From an uncultured Candidatus Saccharibacteria bacterium (lineage in GTDB: Bacteria; Patescibacteriota; WWE3; UBA101185; UBA10185), in NCBI GenBank assembly GCA_964574405.1, contig CAZNNN010000002.1:1-56219 (forward strand): a stretch of 56,219 nucleotides of DNA. The letters are read 5' to 3'. Positions 43,248 through 50,859 of this stretch are shown in pieces. Below the pieces are notes generated by a model. The model searched no databases, was not told where the DNA came from, and saw only the letters and a list, made by a program, of their open reading frames with translations. The position numbers were made by a program, and so were the translations under genes. Numbering within the stretch: the stretch's first letter is position 1; every line of letters starts with the position of its first letter.

Positions 43248-43658
43248 TCAAGCTGTTGGTAGAAAATTGTTACCCATCATCGTGAGTTTTTCATCGTAGG
43301 TAAGAAGTTGGCTGTTTAATCTACGCGCCTCTAGATGAAGATAGATATCTACTAGATCCAGGGGTAAATTAGCAAATCGCTGTAAAAGTTCGTAAACCAC
43401 ATCCTTATGCGAGTCGTAAATATCTACATTTTCAAGCAGGATAATATACAAAATGTTGTCTACAATTTCAGCTCTCTTCATTTTGTAATACTTTTCAAGT
43501 ATCCAAACTACCTCTTGAATAACCAAGATAGAGATAAGTGCAGTTTTTTCCTTTTTCACAATCTGCTTAAAAAACTTTTCGCTTTTGGCATACTTTTCAG
43601 GGTCGTCCCTAATAATAAAACGGAGAATAATATTGGAATCAATAACTACTTCATTCAT
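43248..43658 (-). CDS. PIN-domain toxin (VapC-like)
   Basis: MNEVVIDSNIILRFI...LLTYDEKL. Confidence 0.8.
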   Translation of the reverse strand: MNEVVIDSNIILRFIIRDDPEKYAKSEKFFKQIVKKEKTALISILVIQEVVWILEKYYKMKRAEIVDNILYIILLENVDIYDSHKDVVYELLQRFANLPLDLVDIYLHLEARRLNSQLLTYDEKLTMMGNNFLPTA

Positions 43659-43926
43659 TTGCCAACTCCTTAGCAACAATTTGTGAGGTGACCTGGCTTA
43701 TTTGGCTGTCGCTCAACTTTTTTTTATCCTTAGCCAAGGTTCTAGCATATATGCCCGCTCTTTTGGCTATTATGCTAATAGGATCCCTGTGAATGGGTCT
43801 TAAATAGATATTTCCGTTGGACTCAATATTTATTAAAATTCTGTCACCAGCACCAAGCGATAATTGATCTAGTAAGTTTTTAGACAATGTTATTTGATTT
43901 TTTGACGAAATTTTTGATATCTGCAT
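43651..43926 (-). CDS. AbrB/SpoVT-type antitoxin
   Basis: MQISKISSKNQITLSKNLLDQLSLGAGDRILI. The ORF track extends to 43980. Confidence 0.7.
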   Translation of the reverse strand: MQISKISSKNQITLSKNLLDQLSLGAGDRILINIESNGNIYLRPIHRDPISIIAKRAGIYARTLAKDKKKLSDSQISQVTSQIVAKELANE

Positions 43927-44103
43927 AGGTAACTTATACCACCCCACTTTGTTTTTGTCAAGCAGCTTTACTTTTGTCAAAAGGAACTACTCTCATCAAA
44001 CTACTTTACTAGTACCAACCCACTTTACTTTTCAAATTCACCTTTGGTTTTGTCAAAAAGAAGTATTGTTGATTTATTCGTTTGTACAAGGTATAAAATC
44101 AAC

Positions 44104-44916
44104 ATGCAAGATGCAAATCAAAAATATATTTCTGGACTCAAGGAGTATCATCACAAACTAGAGAATTTTGTTCGGGAATCTTACCTTATTGACCCAAAAT
44201 ACCTAGAGGTTATTTCTTGGGGCTACCACACTACGGCAATTTATATTAAGGCGAACGACAATAAAGAATACCTCTTGAGGCTTGCTGACTGGAGTGAGAA
44301 AAAAGAAAAGGGCATTTTAAAGGATATCGAACTATCAAACAAGTTGCGTGGGGTTATCCCCACACCCGTATACATTAAAAACCACAGCGGTAATTATATC
44401 TGTCGATTTGAAGATAAAATTTTACGACTTTCACACTACATCTCCGGGCTTGCCCCGTTGGACATGGATTTTAATATTTTAGAGCAAATGGTTACTGTAT
44501 TAAAGAAAATCCACGCCACTACTCACGCCGATTCTCTCTGTAACGGCGTTTTACTTCATGGGGATCTAACCCCCCACAATGTTTTGGTATCCTTTGGAAA
44601 AGTTGTGGCAATAATGGATTTTGAACTGTTGTTTGTTGGACCGCGAGAATGGGATCTAGCAAGAACAGCTTTTTTTAGCTGGAACTATATGAAGAATGCA
44701 TTATTTGAACAAGTCGCTCAATTTGTACTAGAGAAATATGGCTACGACTCTATAAATTCCAACCTATTTTTTAAATACGCGGTAGAAAATGCTCAAAAAC
44801 ACCTAGATTCCGTGGAAAAACATCGTAACGACTACGATCGACAGGAAGATTGGGAAAAAGATCACGATTTTGCCACCAAGCAGATTGCTTCACTTCGTTC
44901 TTGTCCCGCCCAATGA
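44104..44916 (+). CDS. APH/choline-kinase-family phosphotransferase
   Basis: LLHGDLTPHNVLV...IMDFE (Brenner motif plus DFE). The ORF track starts at 44044 (TTG); ATG 44104 was chosen. Confidence 0.7.
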   Translation: MQDANQKYISGLKEYHHKLENFVRESYLIDPKYLEVISWGYHTTAIYIKANDNKEYLLRLADWSEKKEKGILKDIELSNKLRGVIPTPVYIKNHSGNYICRFEDKILRLSHYISGLAPLDMDFNILEQMVTVLKKIHATTHADSLCNGVLLHGDLTPHNVLVSFGKVVAIMDFELLFVGPREWDLARTAFFSWNYMKNALFEQVAQFVLEKYGYDSINSNLFFKYAVENAQKHLDSVEKHRNDYDRQEDWEKDHDFATKQIASLRSCPAQ

Positions 44917-46401
44917 TAAAGGCTTATCTTGTTCAAAATGCAAACCTAGTTTAACAGCTGTTTCCGCCTTAGCTAGCTGCCTACCCAGATCACAAGCCGC
45001 ACCAAGATCAGAGATTAGCATCTCTTTTAATGCTGTGGCGCATAAATCTCTGGCCACTTTAGGTTTTTTTCCATCCATTTTTAATGTAGTTAAAGGTTTT
45101 GTCCCATCCGGAGAAAAAAACTCGGCAATAATGTCATCGCCCTCAACCTTAATAATGTAGTAACTTCTAGGATCATAGGTACAGGTTCTAGCTAACGAGT
45201 CGTTTTTTTCTATCACCAGAGAGGCTAAATCCCAATCCCCCTCGTAAATTTCCGCGATATGGGAAATGGTGGTTAAACTACCCACATTCTTACCAATTTT
45301 GTGCGCCAACCCCTCCTGAAACTTTCTTAGGGCAAAGGCATTTAACGACCAAGCTCCGTACATATCATTATTTCTAAAAATGGCGGTCATATAAAGCGCG
45401 TTCCCCATACACTGGGCTAAAAGCATCACTAAACACGGCACTTTCCAACCTTTGGTCTGCCCCAATGCCGATATCGAGTTGCCTTTTGGCGGAAAGTTGT
45501 CTGTATTTACCTCCCACAAAACTGCTACCGCTCCCCTGTCGTAAGGAAATCGCTTTAATTTTTCCACCATAATTTTTTGCTGATCCACGCCACCGCCCCA
45601 ATTAAAAATCCGCTCACCGTAGGTATAGGACTCACTGCTATCCTCATTTTTACTAAAAAATCCCAGGTAGTAATTTTTTAGTGATTTTGCACTAAAAGTT
45701 AAGTACGGTTCAATTTTGGGCAACTTGGTGGACTCTTTTTCTATTACCACCGATAAATTTTGCACTTGTTTAACTTTTCCATACATCCCAGGCGTGTCCA
45801 CACCAAACCTCATAATAGTCTTTAAAACATCTAGCCAGGCATCGCCAATGTAATCTCTACGAATCTTAAAAACAGAAAGGTCGCTGGGAAAGCCTGATTT
45901 TAATTCCACTTTTTCCTCCGGAAATATCTGTGGCTCACCAAAGGGCTTTTCTGATGGAAGTTTTTGTACAAAATCCCGTACCTCCTCCAAAGGACGCATG
46001 ATCATGTTGTGTACAGAAATACTTCTTCTTAAAAGTTCCAAGGCCTCTGGCGGAATTTCTTTGTCTATTAACGCCTCATCATCTCCAACAATTCTCCATC
46101 CACCACCCCGGCTATTCCCAACAACCCCACTTTTAAAAAATTTAAGCAGAGCCTCCCCGCTCCCCTGCCTATCTGGTCCACAAATCACCAGATGTCTAAT
46201 TTTTGGGTTGGCTAGGATGTTCCTTAACAACGGATTAATACCTCTTTTGGTATAAAGTTGGCCACAAACACTGTACAACGGTGCTCCCAATACATCAGCC
46301 ACACTTTCTTTAGGCATCCACAGGGTAGCCACACCCACATTAGAATCAAAGTCGCTCACCAAAAGTCGGTCTTTAAAATAAATTGGCCAACTCACTTCCA
46401 C
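44890..46401 (-). CDS. Three-domain ThyA-like protein (N-terminal MtrA-like region, thymidylate synthase/dUMP-hydroxymethylase-like core, DUF4346-like C-terminus)
   Basis: The core VPCLVMLLAQC...AIFRNNDMYGAWSLNAFAL aligns with ThyA PCH...RSxD...N (catalytic Cys, Arg, Asp and Asn retained). The C-terminus reads ...ISDLGAACDLGRQLAKAETAVKLGLHFEQDKPL. Confidence 0.7.
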   Translation of the reverse strand: MEVSWPIYFKDRLLVSDFDSNVGVATLWMPKESVADVLGAPLYSVCGQLYTKRGINPLLRNILANPKIRHLVICGPDRQGSGEALLKFFKSGVVGNSRGGGWRIVGDDEALIDKEIPPEALELLRRSISVHNMIMRPLEEVRDFVQKLPSEKPFGEPQIFPEEKVELKSGFPSDLSVFKIRRDYIGDAWLDVLKTIMRFGVDTPGMYGKVKQVQNLSVVIEKESTKLPKIEPYLTFSAKSLKNYYLGFFSKNEDSSESYTYGERIFNWGGGVDQQKIMVEKLKRFPYDRGAVAVLWEVNTDNFPPKGNSISALGQTKGWKVPCLVMLLAQCMGNALYMTAIFRNNDMYGAWSLNAFALRKFQEGLAHKIGKNVGSLTTISHIAEIYEGDWDLASLVIEKNDSLARTCTYDPRSYYIIKVEGDDIIAEFFSPDGTKPLTTLKMDGKKPKVARDLCATALKEMLISDLGAACDLGRQLAKAETAVKLGLHFEQDKPLSLGGTRTK

Positions 46402-47339
46402 ACACCCTCCTCCTTAATTTGCTGTATTTTGACACCATTTTTAACTAGTAGTGACTCCCCTAGTTTACCGCCCATATAGTCCGACATGTAAAAGAGTCTA
46501 CCGATTCCACATTTAGCCAAAAGTCGCGCGCATATTACACAAGGAAAGGTTGTTAGATACACATCAGTACCCTCTAGCGACACACCCACACGGGCACATT
46601 CTGCCACTGCGTATGCTTCCGCGTGGATGGAACACACCTTTTCTATGTCTTTACCCCCATGCAAATTCTCTTTTTCTCTTATACACTCCCCATTTTTACA
46701 ATAAATCTCGCCCGGCAAAGTGGCATTCCAACCCTCCGCAACAACCTTACCGTTTTTAACCATCACGCATCCGGTTTTATATCCGCATGTGGACTTGTTG
46801 CACAGCAAACACGCCCGCTTCATATAATCGATGTTGTTGCCCACAGTAGCGGGGCGGGTCTCCCCATTGGAACAGTCGTGTGCACGGAGTTTAACTGCAA
46901 CATCCAGTGACGAGAGTTTCAGCTCTTGGTAATTGTAACAAATACCTTTCTGGTTGCGCTCCAAAAACCCCGGAACGCATGGCATAATATGAAGATGCAG
47001 ATGACCCAAGCTTTTTCCGCTACCTACACCGCCCTCTCGATATAATATATTGGAATCTTCTATACCAAAACCCTTTTTTAATAAATCAATACCCAGGGTC
47101 GTCAATTTACCAACAGCAACCCATTCCATAGCTGTAAGTTCATGGAATTTCTCAATATGTCGCCTGGGAATTATTAATACATGCCCGTCCAAATAAGGAA
47201 AAAGGTTTACGGTTAAAACCATCCCACCCTCCTCCGCAATAATATACTTATCTTTTAGGTCGCAAAAAACGCATTTATCCAGCGCGCTCACCGCCCTATC
47301 GTACCGATCACTAACCCGTGGATTACCTACTTTTGCCAT
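46392..47339 (-). CDS. Fusion of an N-terminal HIT domain and a C-terminal dCMP/cytidine deaminase domain
   Basis: HVLIIPRRH...GHLHLHIMP (HxHxHxx) followed by CSIHAEAYAV...TTFPCVICARLL (HAE...PCxxC). Confidence 0.8.
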   Translation of the reverse strand: MAKVGNPRVSDRYDRAVSALDKCVFCDLKDKYIIAEEGGMVLTVNLFPYLDGHVLIIPRRHIEKFHELTAMEWVAVGKLTTLGIDLLKKGFGIEDSNILYREGGVGSGKSLGHLHLHIMPCVPGFLERNQKGICYNYQELKLSSLDVAVKLRAHDCSNGETRPATVGNNIDYMKRACLLCNKSTCGYKTGCVMVKNGKVVAEGWNATLPGEIYCKNGECIREKENLHGGKDIEKVCSIHAEAYAVAECARVGVSLEGTDVYLTTFPCVICARLLAKCGIGRLFYMSDYMGGKLGESLLVKNGVKIQQIKEEGVWK

Positions 47340-48531
47340 TTTCTTCCTTTAATTGTCCGTTTTCCAGAAGCATAGCCTTAAATTTATCATCTTGCATGCA
47401 CTCGCCAAAAATCTCCTTTACTTTTTTATACGCCATTTTGTTAATAATAGTGGACGACGACAAAAAAGGCGACTGACGAGGTTCTAAAACCACTTTTCCG
47501 CCATAGCCTTTTACAATTTTATATTCTTCGCTTTGTTTAATACCTTTATTCCAATCTTCATCTACGGTAAAAAATACGGCGGGTTTGAGTATCTCCAAGG
47601 TTGATGCCACGGTTTCGTCATCAAAAATATACACATAGTCAACAAAGGCCAAACTAGCTAAAACATAGGCGCGAGAAAATTCGTTAATAATTGGTCGCCC
47701 GTAACCTTTTTTAGCACTAATTTTAGTGTCGCACGGAATTCCAACAATTAAAGTGTCTCCAAGTAGCGAGGCTTTTTTAATAAACCGTGTGTGCCCCACA
47801 TGCAACAAATCGTACGACCCCGAAACAAATACGGTATTTTTCTTGCCTGCTAACTCTAAAAGCTCCAAAGGATTTTTGTAAATTAGTTTTGATGGATTAA
47901 ACGCTTTAACATTATTTGGCGTCTGATTACCGTAATCGGCAGGTTTAAAATCAGAAATGGTATTAAGTCCAAAATTAATGTTTTTTGACCATAGATAAGA
48001 AGCCACAATCTCCATAAATCTAACATTAGCAATATGTTCAATTAAATCTCTAGCGCTTTTGTAGGGATTATTATCCTCCTGCACAATAAGTTTTCCTTTG
48101 TGTTTTCTAAGCAAATACCGTGCCTGGTCATCAAAATTGCCATTTTCTATTTCCTTTTGAGTAGTATAAAAAATATCCGGCTCAAGTAAAACAATTGAGG
48201 TGTGGGGCTCGCCCTCGTCTACGGTTGTTATGTAGTCAACTGACCTTAAGTAACTTAACATTTCCATTCTGGCCGACTGGTTTAGCAAGGGAAAATCCGG
48301 TCCTTTAATTTTTGTTATAGAGCGATCCGAGCACACCCCCACCACTAAAACATCCCCTAAAGCTTTAGCCTCGGATAAAAACCTACAGTGCCCCGGAGTA
48401 ATAAGTTCAAACGAGCCGGTAGTAAAAACAACCTTTTGACTCTTTTTATGAATTTTTTTCCCAAGTCTAACCAGATCTTTAAATTCAACCACCTTTGTGT
48501 GCTGTTTTTCCGCTCTTTTATGTTTTTCCAT
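47323..48531 (-). CDS. Tandem cytidylyltransferase-fold (RfaE-II/TagD-like) nucleotidyltransferase
   Basis: Two copies of the motif are present: TTGSFELITPGHCRFLSEAKALGDVLVVGVCSD and VSGSYDLLHVGHTRFIKKASLLGDTLIVGIPCD. Confidence 0.75.
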   Translation of the reverse strand: MEKHKRAEKQHTKVVEFKDLVRLGKKIHKKSQKVVFTTGSFELITPGHCRFLSEAKALGDVLVVGVCSDRSITKIKGPDFPLLNQSARMEMLSYLRSVDYITTVDEGEPHTSIVLLEPDIFYTTQKEIENGNFDDQARYLLRKHKGKLIVQEDNNPYKSARDLIEHIANVRFMEIVASYLWSKNINFGLNTISDFKPADYGNQTPNNVKAFNPSKLIYKNPLELLELAGKKNTVFVSGSYDLLHVGHTRFIKKASLLGDTLIVGIPCDTKISAKKGYGRPIINEFSRAYVLASLAFVDYVYIFDDETVASTLEILKPAVFFTVDEDWNKGIKQSEEYKIVKGYGGKVVLEPRQSPFLSSSTIINKMAYKKVKEIFGECMQDDKFKAMLLENGQLKEENGKSR

Positions 48532-48562: not shown

Positions 48563-50830
48563 TTAATCTTTTTTGGCTATATGCTTACGCTTTGGTCTTG
48601 CCATTTCGGCTTGGGCTTGAGCCTCGTTAGACGGTTTTTTCCAGGTAGAATACTTGCAATCAGGATAGCGACTGCACCCGTAAAAGGTGCGACCTTTACC
48701 TTTTTTCACTACTAAATCTCCCTCTTTACACTCTGGACATTTTACCCCAATCTTTACCAAAAAGGGCTTAGTTGACCTACAAGCAGGATAACGCGAGCAG
48801 GCTAAAAACTTGCCAAATCTCCCCACCCTTAAAATATAATCCCCCTCCTTGCAAACCTCACATTTACCGTAGTCTCTTGGTTCGGATGTGCTTTCTACCG
48901 CATTACCGTCTTCATCCACTAATGAGGTAATTTTTTCCTCCGTTGGTTTGGCAAAATCGCAGGTTGGATAATCCGAACAACTTAAAAACTTACCAAACTT
49001 GCCGAGTTTAAACATAAGTATTTTTCCACATTTTGGACAAAGCTCGTCAGAGTTACCTAAAAAGGTAATATCTTGTTTTTTTAACTCTGTATCTTTTTGT
49101 TTAACAATCTTTGCAAAGGGCTCGTAAAACTCTTTAATAACGGGTTGCCACTTAAGCTTACCCTCCGCTACTTCGTCTAATTGTTCTTCCATCCGCGCGG
49201 TAAAGTCGTAATCCACAATATTACTAAAGTGTTTATTAAATAAATCTATTACAACATACGCAACATCCAGGGGCTTAAAGTACCTGGCTTCTTTTTCCAC
49301 ATAGCCACGCGCCTGAATAGTTTGAATGGTGGGAGCATAGGTAGAGGGTCGGCCCACACCCATTTCTTCCAAAGCTTTAATAAGGCTGGCATCTGTAAAG
49401 CGCGCTGGTGGTTGGGTAAAATGTTGCGCCGGATCTAATTTAGCCAACTTAACACTATCCCCTTCTGCCATTTCCGGAAGTTGGTTTTGATTTTCTGTGT
49501 CATCTTCGTTGTCAGTAGCATCTGATGCCGTCGTCGAGTCCAACAAAAACACGCTTCGCGGAGTTTTCTTATGGACATCGACATCCGGCAATAGTTGATT
49601 GGATAATTCAAGCCAGCCCGCAAACTTAATAACCGATCCGTTGGCTCTAAAGCCGTATCCAGAGTCGCCCAAAATATACACGCTAGTAGCATCATAAATT
49701 GCCGGAGCCATTTGGCACTCAACAGACCTCCGCCAAATTAACGAGTACACCTTTTGCTCTTCCGCACTTAAAACTGCAATATCGGCATCCCCTGGAGTCA
49801 ACCCTATATTTGTTATTCTTATAGCCTCGTGAGCCTCCTGGGCGTTTTTGGAATTGTTTTTGTAGTAATTGGGCAATTCCGGCAAATGCGCCTTGGAATA
49901 CTTTTTTTCCACAAATGTTCTCACCGCGTCAATAAACTGGGCAGAAAGGTTTAACGAATCTGTTCTGTGATAAGTTATTAAGCCTTTTTCAAAAAGCATT
50001 TGGGCGGCTTTCATAGTTTTGTAAGCAGGAAAACCAAAAACATTGGAAGCGCTTTGCTGAAGAGTAGAGGTTTTTAGCGGAGGATAGGGGCGTTTTTGCT
50101 TTTGGGTTTTAGTAATTTTGGCTACTTTAAATTTATCGTTATTTAACACTTCAACAATTTCTTTTACCTGCGCGTGACTCTCTATCTCCAGTTTTTTATC
50201 ATTTTTCTCTAGTAAATTAGCGGAAACTTTTCCGTTTTTATGGTCAAATACTCCTTCAATTGACCAGTATTCCACCGGCTTAAAAGCTATTCTTTCGCGT
50301 TCACGCGTAACCACAATCTTTACCGCTACACTCTGCACCCTGCCGGCAGAAAGTCCAAACCGCACTTTTTTCCAAAGCAACGGTGATAATTTATACCCAA
50401 CCAGTCTATCCAAAACCCTTCGTGCCTGTTGGGCGCCCACTAGGTTAAAGTCGATCTTACCTTGATGCTCAAACGATTCCTGCACGGCGCTTTTGGTTAT
50501 TTCGTGAAAAACCGCCCGCCCATAATCTTTGTCTTTAAGCTTTAACAGCTCCTTTAAATGCCACGCTATGGCTTCCCCCTCCCTATCGGGGTCGGTGGCT
50601 AAAACAACCTTATCTGCATCTTTAGAGTATTTTTTTAACTCGGTAAGCGTTTTTTTAGCTTTGTCCGGCACTACATATTCTGGTTCAAAATTGTGTTCAA
50701 CATCCACACCCAACCCACTTTTTGGCAAATCCCTAATGTGTCCCATGGATGCGCGCACCACAAAATCCTTGCCCAAGATGGTTGAAAGAGTCTTTGCTTT
50801 AGTTGGCGACTCTACAATTACTAATTCCAT
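48563..50830 (-). CDS. topA: DNA topoisomerase I (type IA) with C-terminal Zn fingers
   Basis: MELVIVESPTKAKT Toprim start. The ORF-track start at 50848 is 6 codons upstream. Confidence 0.95.
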   Translation of the reverse strand: MELVIVESPTKAKTLSTILGKDFVVRASMGHIRDLPKSGLGVDVEHNFEPEYVVPDKAKKTLTELKKYSKDADKVVLATDPDREGEAIAWHLKELLKLKDKDYGRAVFHEITKSAVQESFEHQGKIDFNLVGAQQARRVLDRLVGYKLSPLLWKKVRFGLSAGRVQSVAVKIVVTRERERIAFKPVEYWSIEGVFDHKNGKVSANLLEKNDKKLEIESHAQVKEIVEVLNNDKFKVAKITKTQKQKRPYPPLKTSTLQQSASNVFGFPAYKTMKAAQMLFEKGLITYHRTDSLNLSAQFIDAVRTFVEKKYSKAHLPELPNYYKNNSKNAQEAHEAIRITNIGLTPGDADIAVLSAEEQKVYSLIWRRSVECQMAPAIYDATSVYILGDSGYGFRANGSVIKFAGWLELSNQLLPDVDVHKKTPRSVFLLDSTTASDATDNEDDTENQNQLPEMAEGDSVKLAKLDPAQHFTQPPARFTDASLIKALEEMGVGRPSTYAPTIQTIQARGYVEKEARYFKPLDVAYVVIDLFNKHFSNIVDYDFTARMEEQLDEVAEGKLKWQPVIKEFYEPFAKIVKQKDTELKKQDITFLGNSDELCPKCGKILMFKLGKFGKFLSCSDYPTCDFAKPTEEKITSLVDEDGNAVESTSEPRDYGKCEVCKEGDYILRVGRFGKFLACSRYPACRSTKPFLVKIGVKCPECKEGDLVVKKGKGRTFYGCSRYPDCKYSTWKKPSNEAQAQAEMARPKRKHIAKKD

Positions 50831-50859
50831 TGCTAAAGAATACCACACTTTATTCCTTC

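Follow-up and report, generated by a model that had tools for sequence, protein, structure and literature searches.

A candidate DHFR-independent thymidylate synthase with MtrA-like and DUF4346 domains in a conserved gene cluster of CPR bacteria

The gene cluster and its ThyA-like core

Thymidylate synthesis is essential and a classic drug target, and to our knowledge only two classes of thymidylate synthase are known, ThyA and ThyX. Here we analysed a 56,219-nucleotide stretch of DNA (hereafter, the window) from an uncultured WWE3-type bacterium, a tiny symbiotic member of the candidate phyla radiation (CPR). The window is contig CAZNNN010000002.1 (C2 in our numbering) of assembly GCA_964574405.1, a genome of 732 kb in 55 contigs that is 97.9% complete. 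It contains three minus-strand genes that overlap by 17 and 10 nt and encode a nucleotidyltransferase (NTase) with two tandem domains, a fusion of a HIT domain and a dCMP deaminase, and a 503-aa protein in which a ThyA-like core lies between an MtrA-like and a DUF4346 domain (the tri-domain protein). A convergent APH-family kinase gene overlaps the end of this set by 27 nt (Table 1). An initial annotation, made from the sequence alone, had given these coordinates and overlaps, and we obtained the same values when we recomputed them from the open reading frames (ORFs); every one of its domain assignments, including MtrA and DUF4346, exceeded the Pfam gathering score. The annotation also took the overlaps to suggest translational coupling. 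This is plausible, and Shine-Dalgarno-like stretches within the upstream genes at the junctions would fit it: AAGGAGGAGGG precedes the GTG of the ThyA-like gene, and AAGGAAG, read from the sequence, precedes the ATG of the HIT-deaminase gene.

Table 1. Positions of genes, domains and related features. Positions refer to the window unless a related locus (L), or a genome and contig (G, C), is given.
Feature	Position	Strand	Remarks
Tandem NTase ORF	47323-48531	-	402 aa
NTase domain 1	~48166-48432	-	GSFELITPGH
NTase domain 2	~47434-47844	-	GSYDLLHVGH
HIT-dCMP deaminase ORF	46392-47339	-	315 aa
HIT domain	~46974-47276	-	Motif HLHLHIMP; Pfam HIT (PF01230) 44.8 bits, cut-off 21.5
dCMP deaminase domain	~46413-46829	-	dCMP_cyt_deam_1 (PF00383) 55.8 bits, cut-off 25
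Shine-Dalgarno-like stretch	46405-46415	-	Inside the HIT-deaminase gene (3' end), shortly ahead of the ThyA-like GTG; read directly
ThyA-like three-domain ORF	44890-46401	-	503 aa, GTG start
MtrA-like Rossmann-type N-terminal domain	45907-46392	-	Residues 4-165; PF04208 34.1 bits, cut-off 25
ThyA catalytic core, short archaeal type	45187-45876	-	Residues ~176-405; Cys323 codon 45433-45435
PterinBD-DUF4346 C-terminal domain	44917-45174	-	Residues ~410-495; PF14251 37.1 bits, cut-off 29.6, positions 2-86 of 86
APH-family kinase ORF	44044-44916	+	290 aa, convergent
topA	48563-50848	-	Co-directional with the NTase gene
NrdJ, class II adenosylcobalamin-dependent ribonucleotide reductase	G000:C6:22855-25293	-	TIGR02504 644 bits, cut-off 400
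Divergent FolD	L015:3068-3868		Both Pfam domains, 49-58 bits over the five loci
Divergent FolD	L021:1318-2127		As above
Divergent FolD	L030:9895-10794		As above
Divergent FolD	L039:9670-10539		As above
Divergent FolD	L059:12853-13749		As above
G024 MtrA-ThyA fusion	L095:2072-3745 (G024:C1, ~456571-458244)		558 aa, between dCMP deaminase and Tmk
G027 MtrA-ThyA fusion	L096:1155-3536 (G027:C13)		793 aa, no Pfam match
Divergent DHFR-like ORF	G020:C9:59578-59955		
Divergent DHFR-like ORF	G026:C1:60043-60408		
Divergent DHFR-like ORF	G004:C51:24680-25018		
Divergent DHFR-like ORF	G065:C10:261648-262025		

The core of the tri-domain protein matched Pfam Thymidylat_synt (PF00303) at 30.5 bits (cut-off 24.3), with only profile positions 92-234 of 266 aligned. 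A full-length ThyA match that includes the N-terminal folate-binding segment is lacking, and hhalign covered template residues 82-246 only. The nearest NCBIfam family was the 'methanogen-type' ThyA TIGR03283 (E = 8.5e-35), matched over positions 3-199 of 201 at 120.1 bits, which is below the curated cut-off of 174.55 bits; PHROGs and NCBIfam both name the 503-aa protein thymidylate synthase. When the whole protein was compared with PDB sequences by plain phmmer, MtrA alone was recovered, and the ThyA core needed profiles or structure to be found. The core shares with the short TIGR03283 proteins (~200 aa) a trimmed fold that lacks the long N-terminal folate-binding segment. Unlike them it does not stand alone, being set between an MtrA-like domain of ~165 aa and a DUF4346 domain of ~90 aa in a single chain. 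Short ThyA of the methanogen or archaeal type also occurs in organisms without DHFR.

We mapped the active site through an hhalign profile alignment of 59 family members against a canonical CPR ThyA (97% probability). In Escherichia coli numbering, Y261 corresponds to Y94, P322-C323 to P145-C146, R343 to R166, D346 to D169, N354 to N177 and Y384 to Y209, and Y261, C323, R343, D346, N354 and Y384 are invariant or nearly so among the 59 members. The catalytic Cys, R-x-x-D motif and uracil-specifying Asn seen in the initial annotation are thus retained, as Cys323, R343-x-x-D346 and N354, all of them invariant, as is the whole P322-C323 pair. Across the ThyA superfamily, N177D is diagnostic of a dCMP substrate, D169N of flavin-dependent hydroxylases and L143D/E of hydroxymethylases (PMC13326640). 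All of these substitutions are absent here, position 143 being Lys320, so the substrate would be dUMP and the protein would belong to no known non-methylating branch. The active site therefore indicates methylation of dUMP, not the production of a modified base.

An AlphaFold2 model of the 503-aa protein (pLDDT 91.1, pTM 0.81) was compared with solved structures using Foldseek. The top match was the 217-aa phage protein AfhB (9iqu, TM 0.81, E = 1.6e-12, 18% identity; also 9iqc), followed by classical ThyA, DHFR-TS and MilA at TM 0.55-0.64. AfhB of phage HY126, like RB69 gp48, is a phage 5-hydroxy-dCMP synthase, and AfhB-type enzymes are likewise minimal ThyA folds in which folate chemistry has been abandoned (PMC13326640). 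That the closest solved fold is a flavin-dependent dCMP hydroxylase speaks for a modified-base pathway, an option raised in the initial annotation, in which a 5-hydroxymethyl- or 5-hydroxy-pyrimidine nucleotide would be made and the kinase and NTase would activate a decorating group. The parallel would be phage clusters that bring together an NTase, an APH-like kinase and a ThyA homologue; phage 5-hydroxycytosine clusters do join a ThyA homologue to a bifunctional kinase/NTase enzyme. At position 143, moreover, the tri-domain protein lacks the bulky hydrophobic side chain that is said to keep water out. The residues that would specify such chemistry are nevertheless missing, since N354 is not Asp, D346 is not Asn and K320 is neither Asp nor Glu, so that the D169N and N177D of AfhB and gp48 have no counterpart here. 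No glycosyltransferase is conserved in the cluster, Tmk is present, and because the gene takes the place of ThyA or ThyX (see below) the cell would have no source of dTMP unless T were fully replaced in its DNA. We consider the modified-base pathway highly improbable. The signature residues differ, which points to shared minimal size, not shared chemistry, as the basis of the likeness to AfhB; AfhB and gp48 also lack the flanking domains.

Distribution of the tri-domain family and of folate genes

The tri-domain protein is the only PF00303 match in its genome. Genome-wide searches found no ThyX, DHFR, RibD_C, SHMT, FolD, Fhs, GcvT, MTHFR or Pterin_bind, and no Tdk, dUTPase/Dcd or RibF; tblastn with the cluster FolD of relatives detected no hidden divergent FolD in this genome either. 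DHFR, which the initial annotation had noted to be absent beside the operon, is therefore missing throughout the genome, as are thyX, tdk and dcd alongside folA (DHFR). Tmk is encoded, and so is Fmt, whose gene lies beside def in the window. In the absence of ThyX, Tdk and any other ThyA, the ThyA-like gene appears to be the sole recognisable route to dTMP, and, with neither dUTPase nor Dcd encoded, dCMP deaminase the sole recognisable route to dUMP. As far as the gene content indicates, no known enzyme is encoded that would charge folate with a one-carbon unit or reduce dihydrofolate again. NrdJ, which carries a C-terminal Cys-rich zinc ribbon, is the only ribonucleotide reductase match, so this small genome would depend on scavenged cobalamin, and by its predicted gene complement the cell must import cobalamin and some folate.

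Full-length relatives of the tri-domain protein were found in 330 species genomes, among them genomes of WWE3, Dojka-, Shapiro-, Collier- and Wolfebacteria, Aenigmatarchaeota, Woesearchaeota, Thaumarchaeota/Nitrososphaera, Brockarchaeota and a Chloroflexi metagenome-assembled genome. An exhaustive search of 1.84 billion representatives returned 236 clusters at E<=1e-30, nearly all of them 460-530 aa long and aligned from query residue 4 to ~497, down to ~30% identity. With 330 species genomes and 236 clusters, the three-domain architecture is far beyond chance. A quick maximum-likelihood tree (unrooted) placed the query in a CPR clade, split (SH-aLRT 99) from a second side that is mostly archaeal and within which the Wolfebacteria and Chloroflexi sequences also fell. 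Public databases tag many members just 'thymidylate synthase' or 'hypothetical protein'. The literature that we searched held no published study of the MtrA-ThyA-DUF4346 architecture; two CPR papers name thyA only generically.

To relate synthase type to folate genes, we drew 151 Patescibacteria genomes evenly and searched this sample for the family profile, DHFR, SHMT and ThyX, counting core-only matches to the family profile as ordinary ThyA. The tri-domain type was present in 14 genomes, one of which has a DHFR match, four SHMT and one ThyX. Ordinary ThyA was found in 60 genomes (DHFR in 56, SHMT in 58, ThyX in none) and ThyX in 52 (DHFR in 9, SHMT in 43), and the remaining 25 had neither synthase (DHFR in 7, SHMT in 17, ThyX in none). 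The lone DHFR match among the tri-domain genomes is weak, a DHFR-like ORF of 31 bits. These 14 genomes are spread over nine family bins, and the eight closest relatives, including the closed 1.1-Mb genome G050, are all without DHFR and SHMT. The three synthase types are almost mutually exclusive, which is the pattern expected if the tri-domain protein is its hosts' thymidylate synthase. Its distribution is that of a replacement for ThyA or ThyX, not of a supplement to them.

The tri-domain type, like ThyX, is uncoupled from DHFR, and it is even less tied to SHMT than ThyX is. It resembles ThyX (PF02511) in phyletic pattern, replacing ThyA and being largely DHFR-independent, but the folds are unrelated, there is no sequence similarity, and SHMT accompanies ThyX far more often (43/52 against 4/14 genomes). 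With classical ThyA (PF00303, EC 2.1.1.45) it shares the catalytic Cys, the dUMP-binding Arg, Asp, Asn and Tyr, the slot after the deaminase gene and, it is expected, the product; it differs in its two extra domains and in that 13 of its 14 host genomes lack DHFR. That the 503-aa protein is the cell's thymidylate synthase, a member of a large and old three-domain family derived from archaeal short ThyA, is well supported by its distribution and residues. A ThyA variant is thus widespread, through CPR, DPANN and Thaumarchaeota, in genomes without DHFR and often without SHMT. This implies either an undescribed supply of methyl groups and electrons, or a tight dependence on a host for folates, and either outcome would call for a revised reconstruction of nucleotide and one-carbon metabolism in ultra-small symbionts.

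Gene neighbourhoods bear out the conserved functional cluster that the initial annotation had proposed. In ~35 CPR loci the genes NTase-HIT-deaminase-ThyA-like follow one another in this order, at synthase identities as low as 35%, with variants in which the NTase has a single domain, HIT lies on the opposite strand or extra genes are inserted. NTase homologues adjoin ordinary thymidylate genes too: the order is SHMT / NTase-HIT-x-deaminase-ThyA-x-DHFR in genome G114, SHMT / NTase-deaminase / DHFR in G030 and ThyA-DHFR / deaminase-NTase in G023, and in G072, G047 and G082 NTase-deaminase adjoins DHFR. The NTase-(HIT)-deaminase unit is therefore conserved whatever the synthase type, and the tri-domain gene appears to fill the slot that ThyA plus DHFR occupy behind this unit in relatives. 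Archaeal loci lack NTase and HIT, and in four of them a dCMP deaminase gene lies close downstream of the tri-domain gene (within ~1 kb), which links deaminase and synthase independently. The initial annotation had set its proposal against an ordinary archaeal-type ThyA with known accessory domains, or a gene order not conserved in any relatives. The core is indeed closest to archaeal ThyA (TIGR03283) and the flanks are catalogued Pfam families; the gene order, by contrast, is conserved.

The best explanation overall, and in our view a probable one, is that the cluster provides the cell's dCMP to dUMP to dTMP supply around a DHFR-independent synthase of ThyA fold. The pairing of dCMP deaminase with a ThyA-type enzyme matches the route named in the initial annotation, and its remark that the HIT, NTase and extra ThyA domains are not standard also holds. 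On sequence and context, the deaminase half of the HIT-deaminase protein would make dUMP. The 503-aa protein would then attack C6 of dUMP by Cys323 and methylate C5, a step for which both its distribution and its residues speak. Comparative genomics suggests that it would do so independently of DHFR, because the gene takes the place of ThyA plus DHFR and its hosts have lost DHFR and mostly SHMT.

Some further features were seen around ThyA-like genes. Several CPR genomes have, immediately next to a ThyA-like gene, a divergent DHFR-like ORF (~180 aa, 31-64 bits, covering the first ~105-115 of 159 profile positions; Table 1), and in G020, G026 and G004 the ThyA-like gene concerned matches the tri-domain profile better than ordinary ThyA does. 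Another such ORF, in G001 (L094:6237-6581), is 2 kb away from the tri-domain gene of that genome. At G016:C1:429228-430025, ~600 bp from the intact tri-domain gene, the reading frame of a second ThyA-like core is interrupted by a TAA; this copy is probably a decaying duplicate. In one WWE3-type subgroup, an Elp3-like radical-SAM/GNAT gene and a class I SAM methyltransferase gene are found directly upstream of the tri-domain gene (L028:4527-6290, minus strand, and L028:6273-6995, plus strand; likewise in L032, L035, L036, L040 and L079). They look like tRNA uridine C5 modifiers next to a dUMP C5 modifier, which may be coincidence. In Dojkabacteria-type loci, a GT4-family glycosyltransferase gene lies near the tri-domain gene (L043:2002-2739, minus strand; also L044, L046, L053 and L055), and in L043 it is convergent and immediately downstream.

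Flanking domains and the supply of the methyl group

The N-terminal domain is homologous to MtrA over ~160 residues (PDB 5laa, E = 6.7e-10). MtrA, the corrinoid subunit of the methyl-H4MPT:coenzyme M methyltransferase of methanogens (5laa, 5l8x), binds cobalamin through His84, a hydrogen-bond network of Glu54 and a GAIPFxEN meander, and holds the nucleotide tail in a pocket formed by Asp17, Lys52/Thr53, Gly57, Val61 and Asn64 (PMC4915002). In the tri-domain family His84, Glu54 and the meander are replaced, the loop is without any His in 57 of 59 members, and the membrane anchor of MtrA is missing. Part of the tail pocket is kept, as D11, G54 and N61. Among the 59 members W28, G47, G54 and G75 are invariant and N61, D77 and S/T81 nearly so, and the best-conserved residues fall in the two loops that correspond to the corrin-bearing loops of MtrA (G47-Q-L-Y50, G54, G75-x-D77 and S/T81-G82). 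With the cobalt network lost and the tail pocket and loops conserved, the ligand site seems to be retained but re-specified.

The C-terminal DUF4346 domain is the sole copy in the genome. As a stand-alone AlphaFold2 model (pLDDT 89) it has a fold of three strands and two helices. NCBIfam places the same domain at the C terminus of TIGR00284 (dihydropteroate synthase-like) and within an MtrA-type model of 390 positions, so its usual company is pterin or corrinoid methyl-transfer proteins.

MtrA-type and ThyA-like domains are also joined in other forms (Table 1). In the G024 fusion the MtrA domain scores strongly (113 bits) and still has the ligand His (GKESGHMSG); the C-terminal part is a highly divergent ThyA-like core in which QPCF and MRANDV...PANAYG can be read (TIGR03283 E = 7e-6, hhalign E = 3e-4), and no ThyA, ThyX, DHFR or SHMT match was found in the G024 genome. 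For the G027 fusion, NCBIfam models detected MtrA-like residues 35-136 and a methanogen-type ThyA at 426-625 (E = 1.3e-15); its neighbours are a deaminase-like gene and a HAD hydrolase gene. Such recurrence in different forms speaks for an active part of the MtrA-type domain in the reaction, not a passenger's role, and the independent fusions, with the cobalt-ligand His kept in that of G024, support a real catalytic partnership of MtrA and ThyA.

What the partnership contributes can be proposed more tentatively. Our best guess is that the flanking domains build a reducing or recycling step into the enzyme, with methylene-folate as the donor. The MtrA-like domain and DUF4346 would then supply what DHFR contributes to the classical cycle. 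In the conserved remnant of the MtrA tail pocket, the former would bind a redox cofactor with a phosphate group, or the pterin itself, and either the methylene of CH2-folate would be reduced without release of dihydrofolate or the dihydropterin would be re-reduced in place; the folate itself would be scavenged from the host. A donor at the methylene level is favoured by five CPR loci in which a divergent FolD is encoded no more than a few kb away from the thymidylate cluster. Protozoan DHFR-TS offers a precedent for built-in recycling, being likewise a chain of ~500 aa with an N-terminal Rossmann-type domain before the synthase, although the N-terminal domain here is MtrA-like, not DHFR, and the Foldseek alignments to DHFR-TS are poor overall (TM ~0.3, rmsd ~20 A).

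The five FolD loci would also suit a core that works as an ordinary ThyA with outside help, using CH2-tetrahydrofolate from a host or from scavenged folate and formaldehyde. Dihydrofolate would then be discarded or given back to the host, or an enzyme not yet recognised would reduce it, and the flanks would stabilise, oligomerise or regulate the core. This account draws on the retention of all classical dUMP-site residues and the loss of the MtrA cobalt ligands, and it suits the way of life of CPR bacteria, which are obligate scavengers and whose Fmt, here, needs folate of host type. If dihydrofolate were released, however, ordinary and tri-domain enzymes should both need DHFR, which accompanies 56 of 60 of the former and 1 of 14 of the latter. 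Both flanking domains are moreover conserved end to end through the 236 clusters, to ~30% identity, and the invariant residues in the former cofactor loops argue for a catalytic or cofactor role. We regard classical chemistry with outside help as rather unlikely.

A corrinoid could also serve, and if it were the carrier this would be the first B12-dependent thymidylate synthase. A cobamide would be bound His-off, as in corrinoid iron-sulfur proteins, and methyl-cob(III)amide would pass its methyl group to C5 of the Cys-activated dUMP. The step would be redox-neutral and would need neither DHFR nor SHMT, which would account for their joint absence; cobalamin binding is proven for the MtrA fold, its tail-pocket residues are retained here, the cell needs scavenged cobalamin anyway for NrdJ, and the G024 fusion, with its ligand His, and the G027 fusion show that MtrA-ThyA partnerships recur. 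Against this, essentially no family member keeps His84, Glu54 or the meander, the genome has no methyl-pterin:corrinoid methyltransferase, MTHFR or Pterin_bind to reload the cobalt, and the FolD of the relatives' clusters gives folate at the methylene level, not the methyl level. We know of no corrinoid-dependent thymidylate synthase, and consider one unlikely here. Put more broadly, with a corrinoid or some other cofactor, the family may represent a third mechanistic class, a ThyA-fold enzyme without DHFR or SHMT whose MtrA-derived domain carries the one-carbon unit or reducing equivalents; that prospect is doubtful, if worth stating.

The nucleotidyltransferase, HIT and kinase partners

The NTase matched Pfam CTP_transf_like (PF01467) at 93.5 bits over two stretches. 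The initial annotation had read GxFxxxHxGH twice; the literal motifs are those in Table 1, and the signature that each domain carries is (T/H)xGH. With two PF01467 domains that each bear this signature, the protein fits the tandem pattern of enzymes like ethanolamine-phosphate cytidylyltransferase (ECT), and its best PDB match is 3elb, the two-domain ECT. The best NCBIfam match was RfaE domain II (TIGR02199; 197.6 bits summed over the two domains, cut-off 181.5), and no ribokinase-type partner, of the kind that goes with heptose enzymes of RfaE type, was seen among the ORFs of the window. The NTase is one tandem ORF in ~22 related loci and a single-domain protein in ~12.

In the HIT-deaminase protein, the deaminase zinc motifs HAE (SIHAE) and PCxxC (PCVIC) are present. 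The deaminase scored under the ComEB (TIGR02571) cut-off, at 80.5 against 219 bits; its PDB matches are the dCMP deaminases of Streptococcus mutans, a cyanophage and T4, and PHROGs labels it 'dCMP deaminase'. The nearest PDB relatives of the HIT domain are FHIT and Ap4A phosphorylase. The fusion is rare, occurring only in the source genome, L006 and L024, and elsewhere the two are adjacent separate genes.

The convergent kinase matched Pfam APH (PF01636; 51.1 bits, cut-off 23.2), and its catalytic loop HGDLTPHNVL and DFE can be read in the sequence. It is kept at the same position in loci L006-L027. In the Shapirobacteria loci L037 and L039, a single polypeptide of 745 aa combines an APH-type kinase, two cytidylyltransferase domains and HIT, and sits directly upstream of deaminase and synthase. 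Together with the HIT-deaminase fusions, this protein chains kinase, NTase, HIT and deaminase to one another, and it suggests that the convergent kinase is tied to the NTase-HIT set. The two kinases belong to the same superfamily; orthology is unproven, the similarity between the window kinase and the fused kinase domain being confined to the catalytic loop.

These fusions keep alive the idea, put forward in the initial annotation, that HIT might release dCMP from a nucleotide conjugate. ECT-type and choline-phosphate cytidylyltransferase (CCT)-type enzymes accept dCTP. The tandem NTase, HIT and APH-type kinase could work as a single module that provides the deaminase with dCMP: the NTase would join dCTP and X-phosphate into dCDP-X, HIT would cleave dCDP-X to dCMP and X-phosphate, and the kinase would prime the X-phosphate. 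Such a dCMP-generating module is a speculative possibility, and it bears on the poorly resolved source of dCMP for the deaminase route.

Alternatively, NTase, HIT and kinase may have nothing to do with thymidylate and may activate an NDP-sugar or NDP-alcohol for the envelope (X to X-phosphate to NDP-X), in the manner of AmgK/MurU, LicA/LicC or RfaE, with synteny in the housekeeping region dprA-topA ... rpsB-tsf making them neighbours. The best families of the NTase (RfaE domain II, TagD and ECT-type) agree with this, an APH-fold kinase with an NTase is a standard activation pair, synteny of the entire topA...rpsB-tsf block extends to related lineages, and archaeal tri-domain genes do without these neighbours. 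On the other hand, the NTase-(HIT)-deaminase adjacency survives rearrangement, on either strand and also with ordinary ThyA, DHFR and SHMT, and in three loci HIT is fused to the deaminase. We take the envelope role to be possible, without expecting it.

Several points weigh against the overall reading of the cluster as a dCMP to dTMP supply with a built-in recycling step. The archaeal members without NTase, HIT or kinase neighbours mean that the module is not needed by the synthase itself, and the dCDP-X cycle is a speculative construction from fusion logic. SHMT is kept in four of the 14 tri-domain genomes and ThyX in one, and the nominal Fisher P values for the co-occurrence counts (3e-10 and 1e-5) are overstated since the genomes are related. 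Dihydrofolate may be reduced by an unrecognised enzyme, for example of the short-chain dehydrogenase/reductase type. We recognised no NAD(P)- or flavin-binding motif in the MtrA-like domain, and a Foldseek search of the PDB with the stand-alone DUF4346 model gave no significant neighbour (best E = 0.02, TM<0.5). Every function given here is an inference from sequence, predicted structure and comparative genomics.

Two other roles were considered for these genes. A defence system was rejected, as PADLOC returned only domain-level matches (a 45-bit dCTPase zinc motif and a 22-bit HIT). A part for kinase, NTase and HIT in flavin salvage was dropped as unsupported; the RibF test was non-discriminating, RibF-type flavokinase being rare across the Patescibacteria sample (30/151) regardless of synthase type.

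The end of topA, upstream, is separated from the NTase gene by a gap of only 31 nt, so the transcription unit possibly extends beyond three genes to include topA and dprA; the adjacency of topA and NTase is kept in ~12 related loci. Pattern scans for promoters and terminators gave matches at chance level. On the far side of the cluster, between the APH kinase gene and rpsB, two small overlapping ORFs (43248-43980, minus strand) resemble, judged by eye, a PIN-domain toxin (143 aa) and an AbrB/SpoVT-type antitoxin (109 aa). The pair looks inserted, because kinase and rpsB genes directly adjoin in the closest relative, L006.

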